DNA of 64,000 nucleotides from positions 3,456,001-3,520,000 of the forward strand of contig OZ253555.1 in assembly GCA_965262725.1 (NCBI GenBank). Reading direction: 5' to 3'. The stretch is from Dehalococcoidia bacterium (GTDB lineage: Bacteria > Chloroflexota > Dehalococcoidia > UBA2979). Below the pieces are notes generated by a model, which worked only from the letters and a program-made list of their open reading frames with translations, was not told where the DNA came from and made no database searches. Shown piece after piece: positions 44,856 to 54,417 of this stretch (its first letter is position 1; each line of letters begins with the position of its first letter). The translations under genes were made by a program, and so were the position numbers.

Positions 44856-45863
44856 CTATCCGGGGCGGGGCCGCGCCGGGACCAGGCTCCTGGTCGGCAC
44901 GTCGAGGCGCAGCCTCTCGGTACGGGGGAGGTAGCACTCGCGCTCCGAGCAGGCCTGGTAGCTCACCTCGATGTCGAGCGGAATCGTGCCCTCGCGACTC
45001 TCGCTCACCAGCGGCACGACGACCACGATTTCGCCAACGAAGGCCGGGAGCTCCGCGTCGATGCCCGCGACGCGGTACGGCTCCGTCGGCGGGTACCGCG
45101 CCGCCGCGACCTCAAGCGGTGACGTCGAGGTGACCCGCACGGTCGTCGGGTAGAAGCCCTCCGGCACCGGCCGGCCGTAGAGGTGCAGCCCCGGCTGAGG
45201 CTCCAGCCGGACCGCGAGGTCGACGACCTGGCCGAAGCGGAAGACGGGCGCCTCGAGGGTAGCGCTGACGGCCACCACGCCCTCCGCCGACGAGGCGCTC
45301 GGCCAGGAGTCGGGAGCGGCGCGTCCCCCCACCCGACGGATGACGGCCGCACCGGACTCCCGAACGCGGTGCGAGCGGTGGAAGACCTTCTGCTCGACGC
45401 GCCCGTCGCGGCCGACGAGATAGGAGCCCGGGAGGGCGATCCCATAGTGCTCCTCCCCCGGGAGGAGCGCGGTGTTGAGGATGCCGTAGCGGCGGATGAC
45501 CGCAGAGCCCTCGTCTGAGAGCAGCGGGTACGCGATGGCGTGGTCGGCGGCGAAGCCAGAGAGGACCGTCGGCGCGTCGTAGCTCACGGCGAGGGGCACG
45601 ATGCCCTGCCCGGCGAGGTCAGGAAGGCTCCTCTGCAGCTCCACGAGCTGCGTGCGGCAGAACGGTCACCAGCGCGCGGAGCGGTAGAAGACGACGAGCG
45701 CGCGGGACCCCTCCAGCACCTGGGAGAGCGTGACGGGCAGGCCGTGCTGGTCGGGGAGCGAGAAGTCGGGGACGAGATCGCCGACCGCGGGTCCCGTCGG
45801 GAGGCCATCGCTCTCTGGGGCGGGGAGCCCTGAGCCGTCCCGCGCGCCGCGCTCGTCGGTCAC
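44856..45863 (-). CDS. Selenocysteine peroxiredoxin-like (AhpC/TSA) protein fused to a DsbD-N-like domain
   Basis: VGDLVPDFSLPDQ..FYRSARW-TGA(45666-68)-PFCRTQL gives UPFC; C-term YQACSERECYLP. Confidence 0.88.
45635..45655 (-). promoter_or_regulatory. Putative SECIS hairpin
   Basis: GCAGCTC-GTG-GAGCTGC perfect stem starting about 15 nt after the UGA. Confidence 0.55.
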
Positions 45864-47033
45864 TTCGCCCCTTCTCCCGTGACCCAGGCGGACGGGCATC
45901 CACACGGATCTGGGCTGGCCAGGACGACCCTAGGCAATCTCGAGCCCGGAACGCAGCCTACTCTCAATCCACCGAATGGCGCCGAACCGCGCCGCGCCGG
46001 ATGGTGTAGCCAATGACGACCGCAGACGCTCGAGACCCGCGTGAGGATCGCGCGGCACTCGAAGGGCTGCTCGGCCCCGCTGAAGCGATCGAGACGCACC
46101 TGTTGCACTGGACGTCGACCCGGTTTCCAGGGGGTGACGACGCCCGATCGGGCCTCCCGTACGACGCCGATCGCCATGAGGCGGTCTATTACCATCACGA
46201 CCCCACCTCCGGCCTCCGAGCGATGATCGCGTTGCACGCGACCGTCCTCGGTCCCGGTCTGGGAGGGGCGCGCTGGCAGCCATACGCGGACATCGGCGAA
46301 GCGCTGACCGACGTGCTGCGACTCTCGGCGGCCATGACGGCAAAGATGGGAGTCTCGGGCCTCGACTGCGGCGGCGGCAAGGCCGTGATCGTCGGGGACC
46401 CGACGACCAAGACGACCGACCAACTCGCCGCCTACGGCCGCTTCGTCGAGCGGCTGCACGGGCACTACGTCACCGGCACCCACGTGGGCACCACCCTGGA
46501 TGAACTGCCAAAGATCGCCCAGCAAACGTCCCATATCGTGGGCCTCAGTCCGACCGGCGATGTCGTCAAGGACACGGCGGAGCCGACGGTGCTCAACGGT
46601 ATGCGCGCGGCGCTGCGCGCCGTGTTCGGAGACGGCTCGCTGGGCGGGGCGTCGCATCGTTGTCATCGGCGTGGGCAAGGTCGGCGGGGAGGTGACGCGC
46701 CGGGCCACCGCCGAGGGCGCTGAGGTCGCGGTAGCGGACCTGCACGAGGACGTCGCCGCTGATCTCGCGAATCAGATCGGCGCCGAACTCATCGCCCTCG
46801 ACGCCGCTTATCTCGAATCCACCGAACGAAGCTTGACGAGGCGGGGTGCCGGGCTGCCGGAGAGTTCGGCGGGCGTGCCGGCGTTCGCCGGGCGGCGCCG
46901 GGGGCGGGCCGGAGCCAGGAGCCGTCGCTCAGCACCGCTCGGGGGCGCTGAGGGTGCGGGCGCGAGGGTGCGCGAGGCGTGGGCGGGCATGCTGGCGCGA
47001 GCCTCGGACCCGGGTCGGCGCTGTGAGCGGGCG

Positions 47034-48359
47034 TCAGGCCGGGAGCGGTATCGCCCGTAGTCGCGCGAGCGCGGCTGCCAGCTGCTCTGCCCAGGGCCAG
47101 CGCTTCGGGAGGTGCAGAGTCCACCGCCGGGCAGAGCGGGTGAGCCGTCCGGCGAGAGAGAAGTAGCGCCGCCTGAGCGTCCTGGTCGTCATGATTCCCT
47201 CGCCGAGCCCGAGGCGCGCCGTCCAGCGGGCGAGGTTGTGCGCGATCACCTGCACCGCGAGCCACGCCGCGTTCGCGGCGAAGCGGCCCGAGGGGAGATG
47301 GTTCAACCCGACGCCGTACTTGAGGTCGCGGATCGCGTTCTCGATCTCGGCGTGACGGCGATGGTCGGCCTCCAGCTCCATCATCTCCCCCGCGCGGTTG
47401 GTGATGAAGACGTGGTAACTGTAGTCCACGAAGAGCGCGAGCTGTGACCCGGGCGTCGGCGTGACGCGCCGCACGATGAGCCGCACCGCAGTGGCGTCCC
47501 CCGTGTGCTGGAACGGCGTGTAGGTCGTCTCGGCGACAGCGGCGCCGCCCGCCAGCCAGTACGGGATCGGCGTCCAGTCCTCTTCCGGTATCGCCTCGAT
47601 CAGCGTGCGTAGGTTCCGCTGCTGGCGGACCGTGACTGAGAAGCGGACATCCATCGCGCGGCAGGCGGCGACGACGGCGTGGGTGTAGAAGCCGCTGTCG
47701 GCGCGCACCGTGAGCTGCCCGCTCGCCCCGGCGTCGCGCACCCGCGCCACCGTCTCACGCAGGAAGTGGGCGGCCCCCCGAGCGGTGTTGGCACGGCCCC
47801 CGCGCAGCCGGGCCATCAGCACCTCACCCGTCCCGGCCGCCACCGCGAACAGCGGGTGATAGCCCCGCACGCCCGTGTAGCCGTGGTGCCGGGCGCCCTC
47901 TTTCGCCAGTCCGTAGGTCTCGCAGAGCGTCGAGTCGAGGTCGATCGTGAACGGCGCCGCGCCGGGTCCCGCCCCGGCCGCCCAGCTGCGGGCCAGCAAC
48001 TCGCGGCTGACGCGGTCGAGCTGACGGACGTGGCCCCAGCGAAAGCTGCGCAGGAAGGTCCCGAGGGTGGACGGCGCCTTCACGGTGCAGCCGAGCACGC
48101 GCCCGGCGCCGCCTGAGCGCATGGCATCGGCGTCATCGATGCAGTCGCCGCCCGCGAGCGCCGAGGCGATGAGAGTCATCAGCTTGTCGCCGACGTTCGC
48201 CCGCCCCGCTGCGTCACCGAGGTCGAGGTGGGCGTCTGCCAGTTCACGGAGGCCGAGCCGGCCAGCGAGCGTGGCCGGGAGCAGCAGGCCCGCGTCGTCC
48301 ACGAGGCGGTCGTCGTCGAAGGCGATGTGTATCCGGTCGGGGCTGCTCGTTGGTAGCAT
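47034..48359 (-). CDS. IS1380-family DDE transposase
   Basis: AGLL, APSTLGTFLR, IDLDST, GYHPL, VRADSGFY, HRRHAEIENAIRDLK. Confidence 0.93.
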   Translation of the reverse strand: MLPTSSPDRIHIAFDDDRLVDDAGLLLPATLAGRLGLRELADAHLDLGDAAGRANVGDKLMTLIASALAGGDCIDDADAMRSGGAGRVLGCTVKAPSTLGTFLRSFRWGHVRQLDRVSRELLARSWAAGAGPGAAPFTIDLDSTLCETYGLAKEGARHHGYTGVRGYHPLFAVAAGTGEVLMARLRGGRANTARGAAHFLRETVARVRDAGASGQLTVRADSGFYTHAVVAACRAMDVRFSVTVRQQRNLRTLIEAIPEEDWTPIPYWLAGGAAVAETTYTPFQHTGDATAVRLIVRRVTPTPGSQLALFVDYSYHVFITNRAGEMMELEADHRRHAEIENAIRDLKYGVGLNHLPSGRFAANAAWLAVQVIAHNLARWTARLGLGEGIMTTRTLRRRYFSLAGRLTRSARRWTLHLPKRWPWAEQLAAALARLRAIPLPA

Positions 48360-48532
48360 CGAATGGGTGCTCCCTGTGGCTGTGACGTGATTCGTTGAAA
48401 AACCATTGTCCCAGCTACAGCGGAGCACCCATTCGCAGCCGCGCATGCGCTCTTCTTCGGTTCGCGGTAGGGATGCCGGTTGCCCGGCACCCCCCGCACA
48501 GATCCGGACGTGCCCTCTCGGGCATCCGGCTC

Positions 48533-49861
48533 CTACCTCAAGTGCGTGACGGCAAATCGCTCCGCAGGCCACGGGTGAAGGATGGAGATTCGGGGCCAGT
48601 GTTTCTGGCACAGGGCAAGGATGCGCTCCCACGTGAAACGGTCGCGCTGCGACCGCCGTCGGAGAACGCGCAGCCAGAGCCGCTTCACGACACGAACAAA
48701 CTGCGTGAGCGCCGGCGAGCTGGTCGGCACCGCGTAGTAGCCAAGCCACCCACGCAGTACCCGCCCCAGCCACTGCCCCGTCGTCACGGGGTTGTCGTGC
48801 ATGCGCCGCCACAACTCGGCCTTGATGGCCTTCAGCGTCCGGCGCATCCGCTTCGCAACGGGCTTGCGCCCCAGCCCGAATCTCCCGTCGCGTCGGGTCC
48901 GGCAGTAGTGCGTCATGCCGAGAAAGTCGAACGTCTCCGGTCGGCCCTCCCCGCGCTTCCGCCTGTTCGCCAGCGCGAACCTGCCGAACTCAAGTAGACG
49001 GGTCTTCTCCGGGTGCAGCTCCAGCCCGTAGGCCGCGAACCGCTCCCGGAGTGCCTCCATGAACCGCACCGCATCGCTGCGGTGCTGGAACCCCAGGACG
49101 AAGTCATCGGCATACCGCACGATGTACGCCTCGCCCCGGACCTCCCGCGGTCGCCACTCGCGCGCAAACCAGTCGTCGAGCACGTTGTGCAGGTACACGT
49201 TCGCAAGCAGCGGCGATATCGGCGCCCCCTGCGGCATCCCCCGCACGAAATCGACTTCCGGCTCCGCGTCCATGACGCCGACGCTCAGCCACTTTCGTAT
49301 CAGGCGCAACACCCGCTGGTCCCCGATGCGCATCTCCAGAAACGACATCAGCCGCCCCCGGTCGATGCTGCCGAAGAACTCCCGGATGTCCACCTCGACA
49401 ATCCAGCTGACCTTGCGCCGTTCGACCGCGTAGGCCAGTGCGTCCAGCGCGTCATGCGCCGAACGCCCCGGCCTGAAGCCATGCGAGAAGCCGTAGTAGC
49501 CCGACTCGTAAATCGGGTTCAAAAGATTGTCCACCACCGCCCGCTGAACGATCTTGTCCTCCAGCGAGACGATACCGAGCGGCCGTATTCCCCCGTCCGG
49601 CTTGGGTATCTCTACCCGCCTGACGGGCTTCGCCCGGTACGCTCCACGGTGTACGCGGCCATGCAGGTCGAGCAATCGCTCGTCCAGCCCGTCCCCGTAT
49701 TCTCGCCACCTCACCCCGTCCACGCCCGGAGCCGCATCCCGCTTCAACGCGAGATACGCCTCCCGCAGCGCCTCCGGCGTGATGTGGTGCAAGAGCGCGG
49801 TGAGTTTCTCTCCCGGCTTCCGTTCCACGAACTGCCGTATCCTCTCCGCTCCGGGTGACAC
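48533..49861 (-). CDS. ltrA: Group II intron reverse transcriptase/maturase
   Basis: APGVDG, IPKPDG..RPLGI, GFRPGRS, PQGAPISPLLAN, RYADD, FDFLG, maturase X domain; no HNH. Confidence 0.95.
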   Translation of the reverse strand: MSPGAERIRQFVERKPGEKLTALLHHITPEALREAYLALKRDAAPGVDGVRWREYGDGLDERLLDLHGRVHRGAYRAKPVRRVEIPKPDGGIRPLGIVSLEDKIVQRAVVDNLLNPIYESGYYGFSHGFRPGRSAHDALDALAYAVERRKVSWIVEVDIREFFGSIDRGRLMSFLEMRIGDQRVLRLIRKWLSVGVMDAEPEVDFVRGMPQGAPISPLLANVYLHNVLDDWFAREWRPREVRGEAYIVRYADDFVLGFQHRSDAVRFMEALRERFAAYGLELHPEKTRLLEFGRFALANRRKRGEGRPETFDFLGMTHYCRTRRDGRFGLGRKPVAKRMRRTLKAIKAELWRRMHDNPVTTGQWLGRVLRGWLGYYAVPTSSPALTQFVRVVKRLWLRVLRRRSQRDRFTWERILALCQKHWPRISILHPWPAERFAVTHLR

Positions 49862-50089
49862 CGCACCCCGACTCTGCGTCCGGACCGTGCCGGTGCTTTG
49901 AGGATTCCTCTCGGTTGGGGCCCTTTGCTCCAGCGACTCCGCCGGGGCTCGCGCCCCCTTCTATGAGGGTCGTCTGATCCGCAAGGCCGACGTGGCGGCC
50001 TTCTGCACCGTTCTACCGATCGCGCCTCCCGTCCGCAGCCCTGTGGTGGTTGTCGGTGCCGATGCGAGTGGTGCCGCCGTCTTGTCCCC

Positions 50090-50240
50090 GGGACGTTGTG
50101 GTGACCGTGCTTCTATTCGCACTCGTCGAGGGGCCGCTCCGGGCCCGGTGCATGATGATCAGCCTGTCTCCAGGGTGTGGGCGCTGCCATCTTGTTCCCG
50201 TCCTCGTTGGGACCAGGGGGTTCCGCAGTCGCCCGCGTGT
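50090..50240 (-). ncRNA. Predicted bridge/seek RNA of the IS1111-type element
   Basis: Target loop CCCCCT..hairpin..GAACAAG and donor loop TCATC..hairpin..ATAGAAG on the minus strand; boundaries approximate. Confidence 0.75.
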
Positions 50241-50306
50241 CGGCATCTCTCGTATCCTCCGAAGCCCACCGGCCGCCCGGTCGCCTCGCTCCTCGCGTGC
50301 TGTCTG

Positions 50307-51398
50307 CTACGCCGCCTCGGCCGCGCGCGCGTGGCGCAACGGCTCGTAGACCTCCCCGCTCTTCCAGAGCGCAAGCATCAGCACCGCCAGTCGCCTCGCG
50401 ACCGCGACGACGGCACGCTTCTTCGCATTGCCGGCCCCCGACTCCGCGTAACGCAGCCCCCACCTGCGGAGGTCGCTGTCGGGGCCGAAGGGGCCCAGGA
50501 TGTAGTGCGCGGCCTGGTTCAGCACCCGGCGCAGCGCCACGTCCCCTTCCTTCGTGATCCGCAGCTGGGGCTGCCGATCACCGGAATCGCGGCTCCGGGG
50601 CACCAGCCCCAGGTAGGGCCCCACCTCCCTGTTCTTGGGGAAGCGGGCCGGGTCCTCGATGGTGAGGATGAAGGTGAGCGAGGTGATCGGGCCGACGCCC
50701 ACGATCTGCCGCAGCGCGCCGGTCTCCGCGTAGCGCTCGCACATCGCGGCGAGCTTCTTGTCGGCCTGGCGGATCTCCCCGGTCAGCTGCTCGATCTGGT
50801 GGAGCACCGGCAGCAGCGCCGGGCCCAGCTCCTCGGGGATGTGCTCTCTGACCGCGCGGTGGAAGGCCGGCGCCGTGCAGCCCGGAAGCGCCGCGCCCCA
50901 CGCCTTCACCGCGCCCCGGACGTGGTTGATGAACATCGTGCGCGCCCGGACCAGCGCCTCGCGGCTGCGGAGCACCTGGAGGTCCGCCTGCGCCATGGCG
51001 CTTCGGTGCCGGATGGGGAAGAGGAGCGCCGGGTCGAATCGGCCGAGCCGTGCGAGGTGCTCGGCATCGGAGCGGTCGGTCTTGCGCTGGCTGCGCGCGA
51101 TCAGCCTGACCTGCCTCGGGTTGGCGACGATCACGTCGTGACCGAGCTCCGCGAACATCCGGCTCAGCCACGGGGAACGCGGCCCCACCTCCATCACCAC
51201 CCGGGCGCCCTGCAGTGGGGTGAGCGCCCGCGTGAGCGCCGCGGTCGTGGTGCGGACTCGCTCCTCCCGCACGATCTCCCCGTCGCCACCGAGGACGCAG
51301 AGGTGGCTGTAGCGGTCGCTGACGTCGATGCCGACAGTCACGAGCTCCGCATCCCCCACCTTCCTGCTCTCTGTGACATCTGATGTACGCTGTGCCAC
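50307..51398 (-). CDS. IS110/IS1111 recombinase
   Basis: GIDVS, VMEVG, KTDRSDA, YLGLVP..DSG; GTG start after AGGAG. Confidence 0.95.
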   Translation of the reverse strand: MAQRTSDVTESRKVGDAELVTVGIDVSDRYSHLCVLGGDGEIVREERVRTTTAALTRALTPLQGARVVMEVGPRSPWLSRMFAELGHDVIVANPRQVRLIARSQRKTDRSDAEHLARLGRFDPALLFPIRHRSAMAQADLQVLRSREALVRARTMFINHVRGAVKAWGAALPGCTAPAFHRAVREHIPEELGPALLPVLHQIEQLTGEIRQADKKLAAMCERYAETGALRQIVGVGPITSLTFILTIEDPARFPKNREVGPYLGLVPRSRDSGDRQPQLRITKEGDVALRRVLNQAAHYILGPFGPDSDLRRWGLRYAESGAGNAKKRAVVAVARRLAVLMLALWKSGEVYEPLRHARAAEAA

Positions 51399-52294
51399 GG
51401 TCGGTCTCCTACCTCTCTCGGCTCGCCTGAGCCGTTCTCCTGGGCCACCACGTGAGCCCGTGCTTGGAGGGGAAGTATCCCCTCTGAGGAGGGGACCGAC
51501 CCTCATGTCATCTTGTTCGCCGCCTTCATCGCTCGTACGGCCCCATCAGACTGCTGCGCATCGTTCATCATCGGCTACGGTTTACGTCCCTTCCCGACGC
51601 GGTCCCGGCGTACGACTCGTCGGGACAACGCGCAGCTCTCCCAAGTCCCGGCGATAGACGTGTGTGCGTGCATGGGGTCTTCGACACCGTGGGGCCCGAC
51701 CACGACTCGCCAGTAGCGCCGTCGCCGGTATTGCCTTCGACCAATCCAAGAGCCTCGGCACCCCAAATGGCCCTTTCGATGCTCATTAGCCCCGCCCGCA
51801 CACCCCGCTGCCGACGCTTCACAAGCCGCCTCGCGACGACCCGCGCACGGCTCGCGGAATGACATGAGTGGCTAGCTCTTTGCCATAGAGGACTTCCACC
51901 TCCTGCCTACTCGCCAGTTAGCCTGGCGCTCTGGATCAGGGCTTATGCGCAGCCGTGCGACGTGCTCTCGCCGAACGCACTCGGCGGCGTGTTGAACGAT
52001 GTGACGATCCGCAAGTTGCGCTGCCGCATCGTCTGCGGCGGGGCGAACAACCAGTTGCAACGCGACCCCGCCGACGCCGAACTCCTTAGCCGCACGCGGG
52101 ATCGCGTATGCGCCGGACTACGTCGTGAACGCTGGCGGCGCCATCGAGGTCGGTGTCGACTACGGCGTCGGCTCGACGGCGTCGGAGCAACCGTGCTGGA
52201 GCTGCTAAGCCGCGCAGAGCGCGAGGGCATCTCGACCGCGGAGGCGGCGTTGCGGAGCGTTGACGTCCGACTCGCGCGGGCGCTGGCCGGGTGA

Positions 52295-52485
52295 GGCGGA
52301 ACGGCGCGGCCGGGCCACACGAGACGTACGGACGCGGGTGTCCCAACGCCTCAACCCGTCACCGTTGCGCCGTGCCCCGCGTGCCCCGCTGCGCTCGCCG
52401 CAGCCCGCGCCTACCTGCGCCGAGACGCCGGCGTCCACTACCGCCTTGAGCGCCGCCTCGGCCTCGCGCAGAACATCCGCAGACG
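52295..52485 (-). pseudogene. IS256 (Mutator) transposase N-terminal remnant
   Basis: DVLRE..VVDAGVSAQVGAG.GERS..R...RNG...RRWDTRV matches the IS256 N-terminal pattern. Confidence 0.65.
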
Positions 52486-52545
52486 AGACGGCTGATGGGA
52501 GGACGAGAGGCGACGGGTGGGGCGCGGGCGTGACACACTGACGGG

Positions 52546-53241
52546 GTGGGGACGCCGGAGCCGGGGCTGTGCGGGGACTGCCGGTGGGCACGGGCGGTCG
52601 TGAGCGACCGCGGCTCGCGCTTCCTGCGCTGCGGCCGCGCCGACGACGATCCCTCGTTCCCGCGCTACCCCGCCCTTCCCGTGCGGGAGTGCCCGGGCTT
52701 CTCGCCGGCTCCGCGTGTGGCCGGAGGGCGCGAGAGGACCGCGAACGGCGGGCCCGGCGCCCGCTCCCCGGGCGTGATCCCGCTCACCCCCGCGGCGACG
52801 GCGGCGGACCCGACCACGACACCCGGGCCGGAATCCACGCTCTTCCGGCGCATCGGCGGCCGCCCGACCGTTGAGCGTCTCGTCGCCGAGTTCTACGCAC
52901 GCATCGAGCGCGACCCCGAGCTGCGCCCGCTCTTCCCCGCGGACCTCGGGCCGGGCCGCGAGAAGCAGGCGCTCTTCCTCGAGCAGTGGCTCGGCGGCGA
53001 GCCGCGCTACAGCGCGCTCTACGGCCACCCGAGGCTCAGGAGGCGCCACTTCCCGTTCGTGATCGATGAGCGGGCCGCCGGCCGCTGGCTGCACCACATG
53101 GCGGAGGCGACGCGGGCGACCGGTATCGCCGCACCCGAGCGCACCGAGATCGTGCGCGGCCTCGGCCCGCTCGCCCGTCACATGACGAACGCCGGTGACG
53201 ACGTGCCGCGGGCTCCGCTCGAGGACCCACGGCTCTCCTAG
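52546..53241 (+). CDS. Group II truncated hemoglobin with a fused N-terminal four-Cys domain
   Basis: LFRRIGG..LVAEFY..LRPLFP..FLEQWLGG..Y..GHPRLRRRH.PF..W; N-term CGDC..C..C. Confidence 0.8.
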   Translation: MGTPEPGLCGDCRWARAVVSDRGSRFLRCGRADDDPSFPRYPALPVRECPGFSPAPRVAGGRERTANGGPGARSPGVIPLTPAATAADPTTTPGPESTLFRRIGGRPTVERLVAEFYARIERDPELRPLFPADLGPGREKQALFLEQWLGGEPRYSALYGHPRLRRRHFPFVIDERAAGRWLHHMAEATRATGIAAPERTEIVRGLGPLARHMTNAGDDVPRAPLEDPRLS

Positions 53242-54414
53242 TGTCCTGATTCGTAATAGCGACAGATAACGGGTATGGTGGCACAGCGGGGTTTTGCCCC
53301 ATGGGGCAGACTCTGGAGTGTCATGAGCACCCGAATCGGACGGCCGACGGTCGCGATCGTCCTGAGCGACGAGGAGCGTGAGACGCTGGAGCGGTGGGCG
53401 CGCCGGCCGACATCGGCCCAGGCGCTGGCGCTGCGCTGTCGCATCGTCCTGGCAGCGGCCGAGGGGACATCGAATAAAGCGATCGCCGCGGCGCTCGATT
53501 GCCATCCGGTCACCGTCGGCAAGTGGCGCCGGCGCTTTGCGCAGGGGCGGCTCGATGGGCTACAGGATGAGCCGCGCCCCGGGGCGCCGCGCACGATCGC
53601 CGATGCACAGGTGGAAGCGGTGATCGTCACGACGCTGGAGGAGCAGCCTCCCAACGCGACGCACTGGTCGACCCGATCGATGGCAGCCGCGGTCGGGATG
53701 TCGCAGTCGGCGATCTTCAGGATCTGGCGCGCCTTCGGCCTGAAGCCGCACCTCGTGGAGAGCTTCAAGCTGTCGCCCGACCCGCAGTTCATCGACAAGG
53801 TGCGCGACGTGGCCGGGCTCTATCTCAACCCGCCCGACGCGGCGGTTGTGCTGTGCGTGGACGAGAAGACCCAGATCCAGGCACTCGACCGCACCGCGCC
53901 GACGGTGCCGATGATGCCCGGCGTCCCCGCCCGCCAGACGCACGACTACATCCGTCACGGCACGACGAACCTCTACGCGGCGCTCGATGTCGCCTCGGGA
54001 TGCGTGATCACGGAGATGACCCCCCGGCACCGGGCTCGGGAGTTCCAGCAGTTCCTCGCCCTCATCGACCAAAGCGTTCCCCATGAGCTGGCGGTGCATG
54101 TCGTGCTCGACAACGTCTCCACGCACCGCACGCCCGCCATCCAGCGCTGGCTCCAGCGCCATCCCCGCTTCACCTTCCATTTCACGCCGACCTACAGCTC
54201 CTGGATGAACCTCGTGGAGCGCTGGTTTGCAGAGCTCACCAGCAAGTGGCTCCGGCGCGGCACGCACCATAGCGTCCCTGATCTGATCCGCTCAGTGGAG
54301 ATGTGGGTCGCCAGCTGGAACGAGAATCCGAGGCCCTTCATCTGGCACAAGTCCGCGGACCAGATCCTTGACAACCTCGCCGGATATCTAGAGCGCATCC
54401 CTGAATCGGGACAC
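53241..54414 (+). mobile_element. IS630-family element, TA duplication
   Basis: IRs GTGTCCTGATTC / GAATCGGGACAC; TA at 53239-40 and 54415-16. Confidence 0.93.
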
Positions 54415-54417
54415 TAG
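53323..54417 (+). CDS. IS630 transposase
   Basis: HTH, CVDEKT, HDYIRHGT, LDNVSTH, SSWMNLVERWF. Confidence 0.95.
   Translation: MSTRIGRPTVAIVLSDEERETLERWARRPTSAQALALRCRIVLAAAEGTSNKAIAAALDCHPVTVGKWRRRFAQGRLDGLQDEPRPGAPRTIADAQVEAVIVTTLEEQPPNATHWSTRSMAAAVGMSQSAIFRIWRAFGLKPHLVESFKLSPDPQFIDKVRDVAGLYLNPPDAAVVLCVDEKTQIQALDRTAPTVPMMPGVPARQTHDYIRHGTTNLYAALDVASGCVITEMTPRHRAREFQQFLALIDQSVPHELAVHVVLDNVSTHRTPAIQRWLQRHPRFTFHFTPTYSSWMNLVERWFAELTSKWLRRGTHHSVPDLIRSVEMWVASWNENPRPFIWHKSADQILDNLAGYLERIPESGH

Follow-up and report, generated by a model that had tools for sequence, protein, structure and literature searches.

A chain of nested mobile elements in a Dehalococcoidia genome, with two insertion steps that are probably RNA-guided

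A four-level nest in a dehydrogenase gene

We describe a 64,000-nucleotide stretch of DNA from a Dehalococcoidia bacterium (hereafter the window; positions 3,456,001-3,520,000 of a single-contig 3.67-Mb genome, G+C 70.6%), in which a Glu/Leu/Phe/Val dehydrogenase gene is interrupted by an IS1380-family element, that element by a group II intron, and the intron by an IS1111-type element of the IS110 family. Together, the inserts total 5130 bp. An initial annotation of the window had proposed this four-level nest, and removing each element in turn bore out all three of its excisions. Taking into account the insertion points, the copies of each element elsewhere in the genome and the matches between putative guides and their targets, we consider it highly probable that the nest is a real chain of successive insertions, of which the two inner ones would be RNA-guided and site-specific.

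The interrupted gene is a pseudogene, whose 5' fragment (46013..46811, plus strand) is recognized by PF02812 (E 7.1e-19), and whose 3' fragment (51947..52294, plus strand) gave no match in a Pfam scan by itself. Removing 46812-51941 plus one copy of CTTAT joins ...LDAAY to AQPCDV..., so that the 3' fragment follows in frame with position 46811; the pentamer itself, found at 46807-46811 on the left and 51942-51946 on the right, reads as a target duplication. The gene carries an extra frameshift near 46650 (46640-46660), around which open reading frames (ORFs) 46013-46723 and 46500-47060 overlap in two frames, and contigs of the public runs X1 and X9 cover 46500-46811 without differences, frameshift site included. 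Two more candidate frameshifts, read from the letters of the 3' fragment, probably lie at about 52085-52180.

The outermost mobile element is an IS1380-family insertion sequence on the minus strand, 1659 bp long once the intron is excluded. Its positions 1-1649, with an intact left inverted repeat starting at 46812, occupy 46812..48460 (NF033539, PF13701), and the outer 10 nt of its right inverted repeat, severed by the intron, lie at 51932..51941. The transposase gene (48362..47034, minus strand) matches NF033539 at 337.8 bits (cut-off 180) and PF13701 with an E-value of 1.1e-60. Elements of this family are expected to be about 1.65 kb long and to generate a short (4-5 bp) target duplication. 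About 17 further IS1380 copies occur in the genome, and the seven that are uninterrupted are all flanked by perfect 5-bp duplications. When 48461-51931 is removed, CTTCTTCGG is joined directly to TGGATCAGGG, which is the right end of those same seven copies; this restored end matches the left end at 11/14 positions, as initially annotated.

The group II intron measures 1917 nt without its own insert, a length shared exactly by ten full copies in the genome. Intron positions 1-417 (51515..51931, minus strand) begin with GAGCG and comprise domain I and the following stems, with RF02005 matching the intron RNA at 170 bits against a cut-off of 49; positions 418-1917 (48461..49960, minus strand; TIGR04416, RVT_1, RF00029) end with ...GAAC and include domains V-VI (48534..48460, minus strand; RF00029). 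The boundary consensus of group II introns is GTGYG at the 5' end and AY at the 3' end, and the 3' terminal AC agrees with it. A reverse transcriptase/maturase ORF of 442 aa (49861..48533, minus strand) is recognized by TIGR04416 (327.3 bits, cut-off 300) and by RVT_1 (E 1.6e-36). Since RVT_1 is its sole hit, no endonuclease domain was detected by the Pfam scan of the intron protein. In a plasmid search, the best plasmid-borne relatives were many proteobacterial ltrA genes, at ~55% identity.

The innermost element (49961..51514, minus strand, 1554 bp) is assigned to the IS110 family by NF033542 (217.3 bits, cut-off 140) together with PF01548 and PF02371, its transposase being a DEDD protein with the IS110 C-terminal domain (about 51350..50307, minus strand). 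The 346 nt of non-coding DNA 3' of the stop codon (50306..49961, minus strand) compare with about 165 nt on the 5' side. Perfect subterminal inverted repeats of 10 bp lie at 51506..51497 and 49972..49963 (minus strand); the IS1111 family is described as having subterminal repeats of "usually 11-13 bp", slightly longer than here, with a 7-nt left and a 3-nt right extension, and as making no target duplication (PMC11187229). The present element has likewise produced no target duplication. With AAG (sense strand) present at either junction, its boundary can be shifted by up to 3 nt; setting it 1 nt inward within this AAG gives extensions of 7 and 3 nt. Once 49961-51514 is removed, the intron sequence is the one present at 10 other places of the genome where this site is empty.

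The intron occupies one point of IS1380-type inverted repeats

The intron at the locus sits 10 nt inside the right inverted repeat of its IS1380 host. A copy table, built by BLAST of the intron against its own genome (5' ends at >=97.9% identity, 3' ends at >=98.98%), shows that this position is not particular to the locus: an IS1380-type repeat tip ending in ATCCA precedes all 14 intron 5' ends at the same point, and CCGA or CCGG directly follows 12 of the 13 intron 3' ends, the 13th belonging to a truncated copy at genome position 3381100. As the repeat occurs twice per element in opposite orientations, each IS1380 copy offers two intron sites, and both left and right repeats are used. The hosts of these 14 introns are eleven members of the main IS1380 family (right or left repeat), two of an 82%-identical variant, and one repeat-like sequence near which no transposase is present.

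The recognition of this point is readily accounted for by base pairing. Exon-binding site 1 (EBS1; intron positions 184-189, 51748..51743, minus strand), which co-varies with the 5' exon, pairs 6/6 with the last 6 nt of the outer part of the repeat, and EBS2 (51774..51770, minus strand) pairs 5/5 with the 5 nt just before the EBS1 target in the right repeat. In relatives that have been retargeted, the letters of EBS1 differ and the 6/6 pairing is kept: through Watson-Crick pairs only in a second, 81%-identical intron family and in L022/L043, with one wobble in L006/L021 and with three in the 734k copy. The site of the 81% family lies 8 nt upstream of the IS1380 transposase start codon, and there EBS2 is altered as well, its pairing being again 5/5. 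The initial annotation had asked whether intron homologues also sit in IS1380 ends, and they do in two other genomes (L015, L042), where introns 94-98% identical to the present one and with an unchanged EBS1 occupy IS1380-type tips. The relatives from other genomes considered here come from Dehalococcoidia metagenome-assembled genomes of a public genome collection.

The intron sense strand coincides with the fork direction deduced from GC skew in 10/14 copies, and in 5/5 of those outside a flat zone at 1.6-2.6 Mb, a bias that is not significant. It is suggestive of homing on the lagging-strand template at the replication fork, as would fit an intron without a detected endonuclease. The cumulative GC skew itself rises from about 0.41 Mb, is flat at 1.6-2.6 Mb and then falls, with the flat zone rich in IS1380, intron and IS1111 copies.

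Two further arrangements of the same elements were observed in this genome. At 2018986-2030896 (L023), one IS1380 copy contains two different introns, the primary intron in its right repeat and an intron of the 81% family at IS1380 position 1559, antisense and 8 nt before the transposase gene begins, this intron being itself expanded to about 6.7 kb; a second IS1380 copy lies tail to tail with the first across a shared ATAAG. At 1949794-1958887 (L025) the nesting is reversed, with an IS1380 copy inside a primary intron at intron position 387. The adjoining hybrid intron, whose 5' 287 nt are primary-like and whose remainder resembles the 81% family, holds an IS1111-type copy plus about 2.2 kb of extra DNA. 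Within the window, a second ATCCACCGA, the 9-mer of the intron homing site, stands upstream of the host gene at 45967-45975 and resembles a solo repeat; two matches in the window arise in 7/100 shuffles, and we treated it as chance.

The IS1111-type element enters a conserved stem-loop of the intron

All four full IS1111-type copies in the genome share the same flanks, three of them in the primary intron at 417/418 and the fourth in the diverged hybrid intron mentioned above. Their target is a conserved stem-loop just upstream of the intron ORF region, the outer stem of which has two compensatory pairs in a comparison of six introns, and which is probably domain III. The three primary introns that carry the element differ from one another, and each is a single SNP away from an IS-free intron; with every IS-bearing intron closest to an IS-free copy, separate insertions of the IS1111-type element can be argued. 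An IS1111 homologue within an intron, another expectation raised by the initial annotation, was also found in another genome (L016), where a relative occupies the same site of a 76%-identical intron, itself in an IS1380-type tip: the same nest, although decayed.

A predicted guide RNA with two target patches

The 3' non-coding region of the IS1111-type element contains a predicted seekRNA / bridge RNA (50085..50262, minus strand), proposed on the basis of natural reprogramming, of the match between guides and their own targets, and of invariant stems with hypervariable patches. In an alignment of 10 sequences, an invariant stem surrounds a large internal loop, at the centre of which lies a small hairpin, likewise invariant; the two sides of the loop are hypervariable. 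At the locus this target loop consists of patch 1 (50225..50215), the hairpin (50214..50198) and patch 2 (50197..50191), all on the minus strand. Patch 1, on the 5' side, terminates with CT, and 6 nt of it are the reverse complement of the right flank; patch 2, on the 3' side, equals the left flank plus AG over 7 nt. If the prediction holds, the pairing partners would be the top strand right of the core AG for patch 1 and the bottom strand left of it for patch 2. The proposal that both inner elements carry RNA segments complementary to the element in which they sit is thereby supported for the intron (EBS1/EBS2) and for the IS1111-type element (patches 1 and 2) alike.

A natural control is provided by a variant element of the same genome, 92-96% identical, which is inserted in an IS3-type element. 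It differs in exactly both patches, and these match its own flanks over 8 and 7 nt. The variant element is itself split by a 2604-bp IS21-type element (IstA, IstB), so that another three-level nest is formed (L024:3875-8034, genome 1707874-1712033). Across 14 element/target pairs from six genomes, the cognate guide/flank match averages 8.29/14, compared to 4.21/14 for non-cognate combinations (sd 1.62, maximum 8, n=170), and eight of the 14 cognate pairs score at least 10. Boundaries, copy tables, guide-target matches and their co-variation were all obtained directly.

The published account of IS1111 seekRNAs places the RNA 3' of the gene, with the top-strand complement first (PMC11187229), and the order of the patches, their 3' non-coding position and the 7/3-nt extensions agree with that description. 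A donor-binding part of the guide is placed tentatively, at 50158..50154 and 50116..50110 (minus strand), from co-variation with the element ends; the 3' donor patch co-varies with the right-end extension in 10/10 sequences.

A model of successive insertions

Taken together, the data suggest a model in three steps. In the first, the IS1380 element would have entered the dehydrogenase gene by ordinary DDE transposition, leaving a 5-bp duplication and using no RNA guide. In the second, the intron would have entered that element by retrohoming, at a point of the right inverted repeat 10 nt short of the tip, recognizing the site through EBS1/EBS2 pairing. In the third, the IS1111-type element would have integrated between two bases of the conserved stem-loop just upstream of the intron ORF region, its DEDD recombinase being directed by a seekRNA/bridge RNA that the element's 3' non-coding region would supply. 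Here we infer the expression of the RNAs and the assignment of the intron domain, and the recombination chemistry is borrowed from the ISEc11 and IS621 literature. As to why such a chain might be favored, multi-copy and selectively neutral mobile DNA could represent a safe landing site, and a sense orientation within a transcribed intron could supply transcription.

The identity among copies is compatible with this order, as it is lowest for IS1380 (median 97.06%, minimum 95.78%) and higher for the introns (99.74%) and the IS1111-type copies (99.74-100%). This gradient implies that the inner elements spread after the IS1380 copies had diverged, in agreement with the nesting order, and it argues against a nest copied as a unit.

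Under such copying, a nest built once would have been multiplied through IS1380 transposition, or through retrohoming of an intron with IS1111 cargo, and the architecture would be uninformative on specificity. In line with this, the genome has three instances of the three-level architecture, whose inner elements are nearly the same; among their three IS1380 hosts, two share 99.69% identity; and an insertion in a peripheral stem-loop may leave the intron mobile. However, the end that is occupied varies between nests (the right repeat at genome 334k and 3502k, the left one at 3302k), identity of the third IS1380 host to the other two is no more than about 96%, and each IS-bearing intron is closest to an IS-free one. 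Copying of the unit would also leave unexplained the guide-target co-variation, and it does not fit with IS1111 copies in the diverged hybrid intron and in the 76%-identical intron of the other genome (L016). We therefore judge it an improbable origin for the nest.

A second concern is that repeats were misjoined during assembly, so that the nest as drawn would be absent from the locus. All three elements are multi-copy and at least 99.5% identical (96% for IS1380), and the read evidence consists of short public contigs that break at repeats. None of them spans the stretch, no contig or read bridges the outer junctions with at least 31 letters on both sides, and parts that the contigs leave uncovered count neither for nor against the nest. 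However, these junctions are seen again at three further sites of this genome and in one other genome. At either edge of the nest, X9 contigs continue out of the host DNA and enter the element by 25 nt, and the IS1111/intron junction is reached or crossed in contigs of X13 and X9 that have fewer than 31 letters to one side of it. The matching CTTAT copies further tie both host junctions to one insertion. Overall, an assembly artefact appears very unlikely. As for alternative forms of these sequences, contigs of 3/4 public runs contain the joined form 49957->51512, which skips 1554 nt, and one X1 contig contains the joint 46805->51941 expected of an uninterrupted host gene, a weak hint given that its shorter side is only 24 letters long. 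No circle junction of the IS1111-type element was seen among the contig joints from these runs, and the stretch was absent from RNA runs.

Finally, random piling in dead DNA or in a hotspot near the replication terminus, which the initial annotation had already argued against, is hardly credible: the genome is very rich in mobile elements, many of them in the 1.6-2.6 Mb GC-skew plateau, and the host is a pseudogene with further frameshifts, but the insertion points are base-identical in 14/14 introns and 4/4 IS1111 copies, the guides match their targets, and the locus lies at 3.50 Mb, outside the plateau.

Several observations weigh against a chain of RNA-guided, site-specific insertions, among them some that concern the predicted guide. 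Its match at the locus is short (6 nt + 7 nt, with AG common to the two). In relatives, the match to their own flanks falls to 2/14 for L014 and 3/14 for L015, and four more (L002, L005, L009, L010) score 6-7 of 14, with the low scores of L005 and L009 partly due to fixed windows that are one base out of register. The related copies, moreover, are not independent observations. The 5' donor patch of L001 disagrees with the left end of that element. The single-sequence fold of the guide region is no better than that of shuffles (z = -0.42), so that the structural argument rests on conservation and patch variability, not on energy, and a compensatory change affects only 2/30 stem pairs, as the guide stems are invariant. 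In addition, an Rfam search over 45000-53500 at E <= 1 returned no family for the IS1111 non-coding region.

On the intron side, the RF00029 score of 39.9 bits is 0.1 below the gathering score of 40 (E 3.2e-05), and the GAGCG at the 5' end departs once from the consensus, with aligned relatives beginning with GTGCG. Gene conversion among intron copies could blur the SNP argument for separate IS1111 insertions.

Comparison with known systems

Each half of the chain has a counterpart among characterized systems. RmInt1 of Sinorhizobium meliloti is a group II intron whose protein is without an endonuclease domain and which homes into ISRm2011-2 (PMC1802570, PMC8914252). The intron described here resembles it, as these papers present it, in behavior: no endonuclease domain is detected, the homing site is in an insertion sequence, and many copies populate one genome. 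It differs in that its site is the terminal inverted repeat of an IS1380 element, which provides two opposite sites that are both used, and in that the host belongs to another phylum.

Likewise, IS1111-type elements have been described that insert at a fixed position in other mobile elements, namely the repeats of Tn21-type transposons and attC sites (PMC11187229). With these the present element has in common its subterminal inverted repeats and its single position in another mobile element, whereas its target is a stem-loop within a group II intron ribozyme. As in the seekRNA systems of ISEc11, ISKpn4 and ISPa11 and the bridge RNA system of IS621, for which the guide is reported to derive from a non-coding end (PMC11187229, PMC11208160), a guide RNA would come from the non-coding end of the element. 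Unlike in those systems, the RNA is predicted here, the core is AG (CT on the other strand), and the donor part is placed tentatively. Natural reprogramming of the guide between relatives is documented in the same two papers for ISEc11 and ISXne4.

A further parallel is found in integrons, where group IIC-attC introns and IS1111-attC elements represent two lineages that both specialize on the site of another mobile system (PMC3001079), as the intron and the IS1111-type element do here. In the integron case as described, both elements target the same third party, whereas here they form a chain in which the intron sits in IS1380 and the IS1111-type element in the intron; and, unlike there, relatives of the intron and of the IS1111-type element possibly target each other.

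Introns homing into insertion sequences, fixed targets of IS1111 elements and RNA guides for both kinds of element are already in print. A literature search at the level of listings and abstracts found no paper that reports a group II intron as the site of an IS110/IS1111 element, an IS1380 repeat as the site of an intron, or such a chain. The word "intron" is absent from the main text of PMC11187229 and PMC11208160, the supplementary tables of which list many insertion sequence targets and may include an intron. While the mechanisms are each known, the chain and the intron target appear to be new.

The locus may offer a case from nature, with internal controls, in which two levels of RNA-guided targeting lie one upon the other. 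It would indicate that a domain of a group II intron ribozyme can serve as the landing pad of a recombinase, and that an intron can specialize on the inverted repeat of an insertion sequence, occupying about half of the copies. Intron insertion probably disables the IS1380 ends concerned, and where a genome is rich in mobile DNA, such chains may as a result restrain the proliferation of insertion sequences. The IS1111 relatives, which are 70-96% identical at the protein level and comprise about ten guide/target pairs, also represent material from which the guide rules of the IS1111 branch, less studied than IS621, could be derived.

Targets of relatives in other Dehalococcoidia

To describe the targets of relatives, flanking ORFs were chosen by third-position G+C and named by Pfam domains only, and the target labels below are provisional. 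The IS1111 relatives were found mostly in other mobile DNA. Besides the intron sites of L016 and L007, position about 322-325 of IS1380 is occupied in three cases (L011-L013), and further relatives lie in an IS21, between its IstA and IstB (L003, with L020 having equal flanks), where an IS3 gene ends (L010), upstream of a different IS110-family gene (L009), in HTH-type transposase-like genes (L001, L008) and, without a guide match, in an IS5-like gene (L014). In three cases the target is an ordinary gene, encoding a subtilase (L002, flank match 7/14), a VWA-domain protein (L004, 10/14) or a cadherin-like protein (L015, 3/14). The suggestion in the initial annotation that the inner elements are specialized hyperparasites is borne out insofar as both are site-specific, and is weakened by these host-gene insertions among relatives.

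Of the ten IS1111 guide sets that could be extracted, eight have a target that, as observed, belongs to or adjoins another mobile element: two different intron sites, IS1380, IS3 (two cases), IS21, a further IS110-family element and the gene of an HTH-type transposase. In L007 (1932-5531), an intron in an IS1380-type tip contains a second intron near its position 124, a twintron-like layout with an insertion sequence, since an IS1111 relative occupies position 12/13 of the second intron in antisense. In L006 (3843) and L021 (3835), the intron begins directly next to the left subterminal repeat of an IS1111 relative that lacks its first 4 nt, and the EBS1 of the intron fits the IS1111 left end 6/6. 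Because the 3' boundary of the L021 intron could not be fixed, the reading of an intron inside an IS1111 element is based on EBS1 only.

Whether the introns and the IS1111 clade of this Dehalococcoidia group are chiefly parasites of other mobile elements, re-aiming their guides time and again within that community, is in our judgment evenly poised. If they do, guide reprogramming would be the normal route to new niches and the nest in the window one snapshot of a network; the EBS1 fit to the IS1111 end in L006/L021 would then make the parasitism reciprocal.

One further mobile element lies close to the locus: an intact IS630-family transposase gene (53275-54417, plus strand; NF033545, 271.6 bits, cut-off 100) stands ~1 kb downstream of the interrupted dehydrogenase gene.

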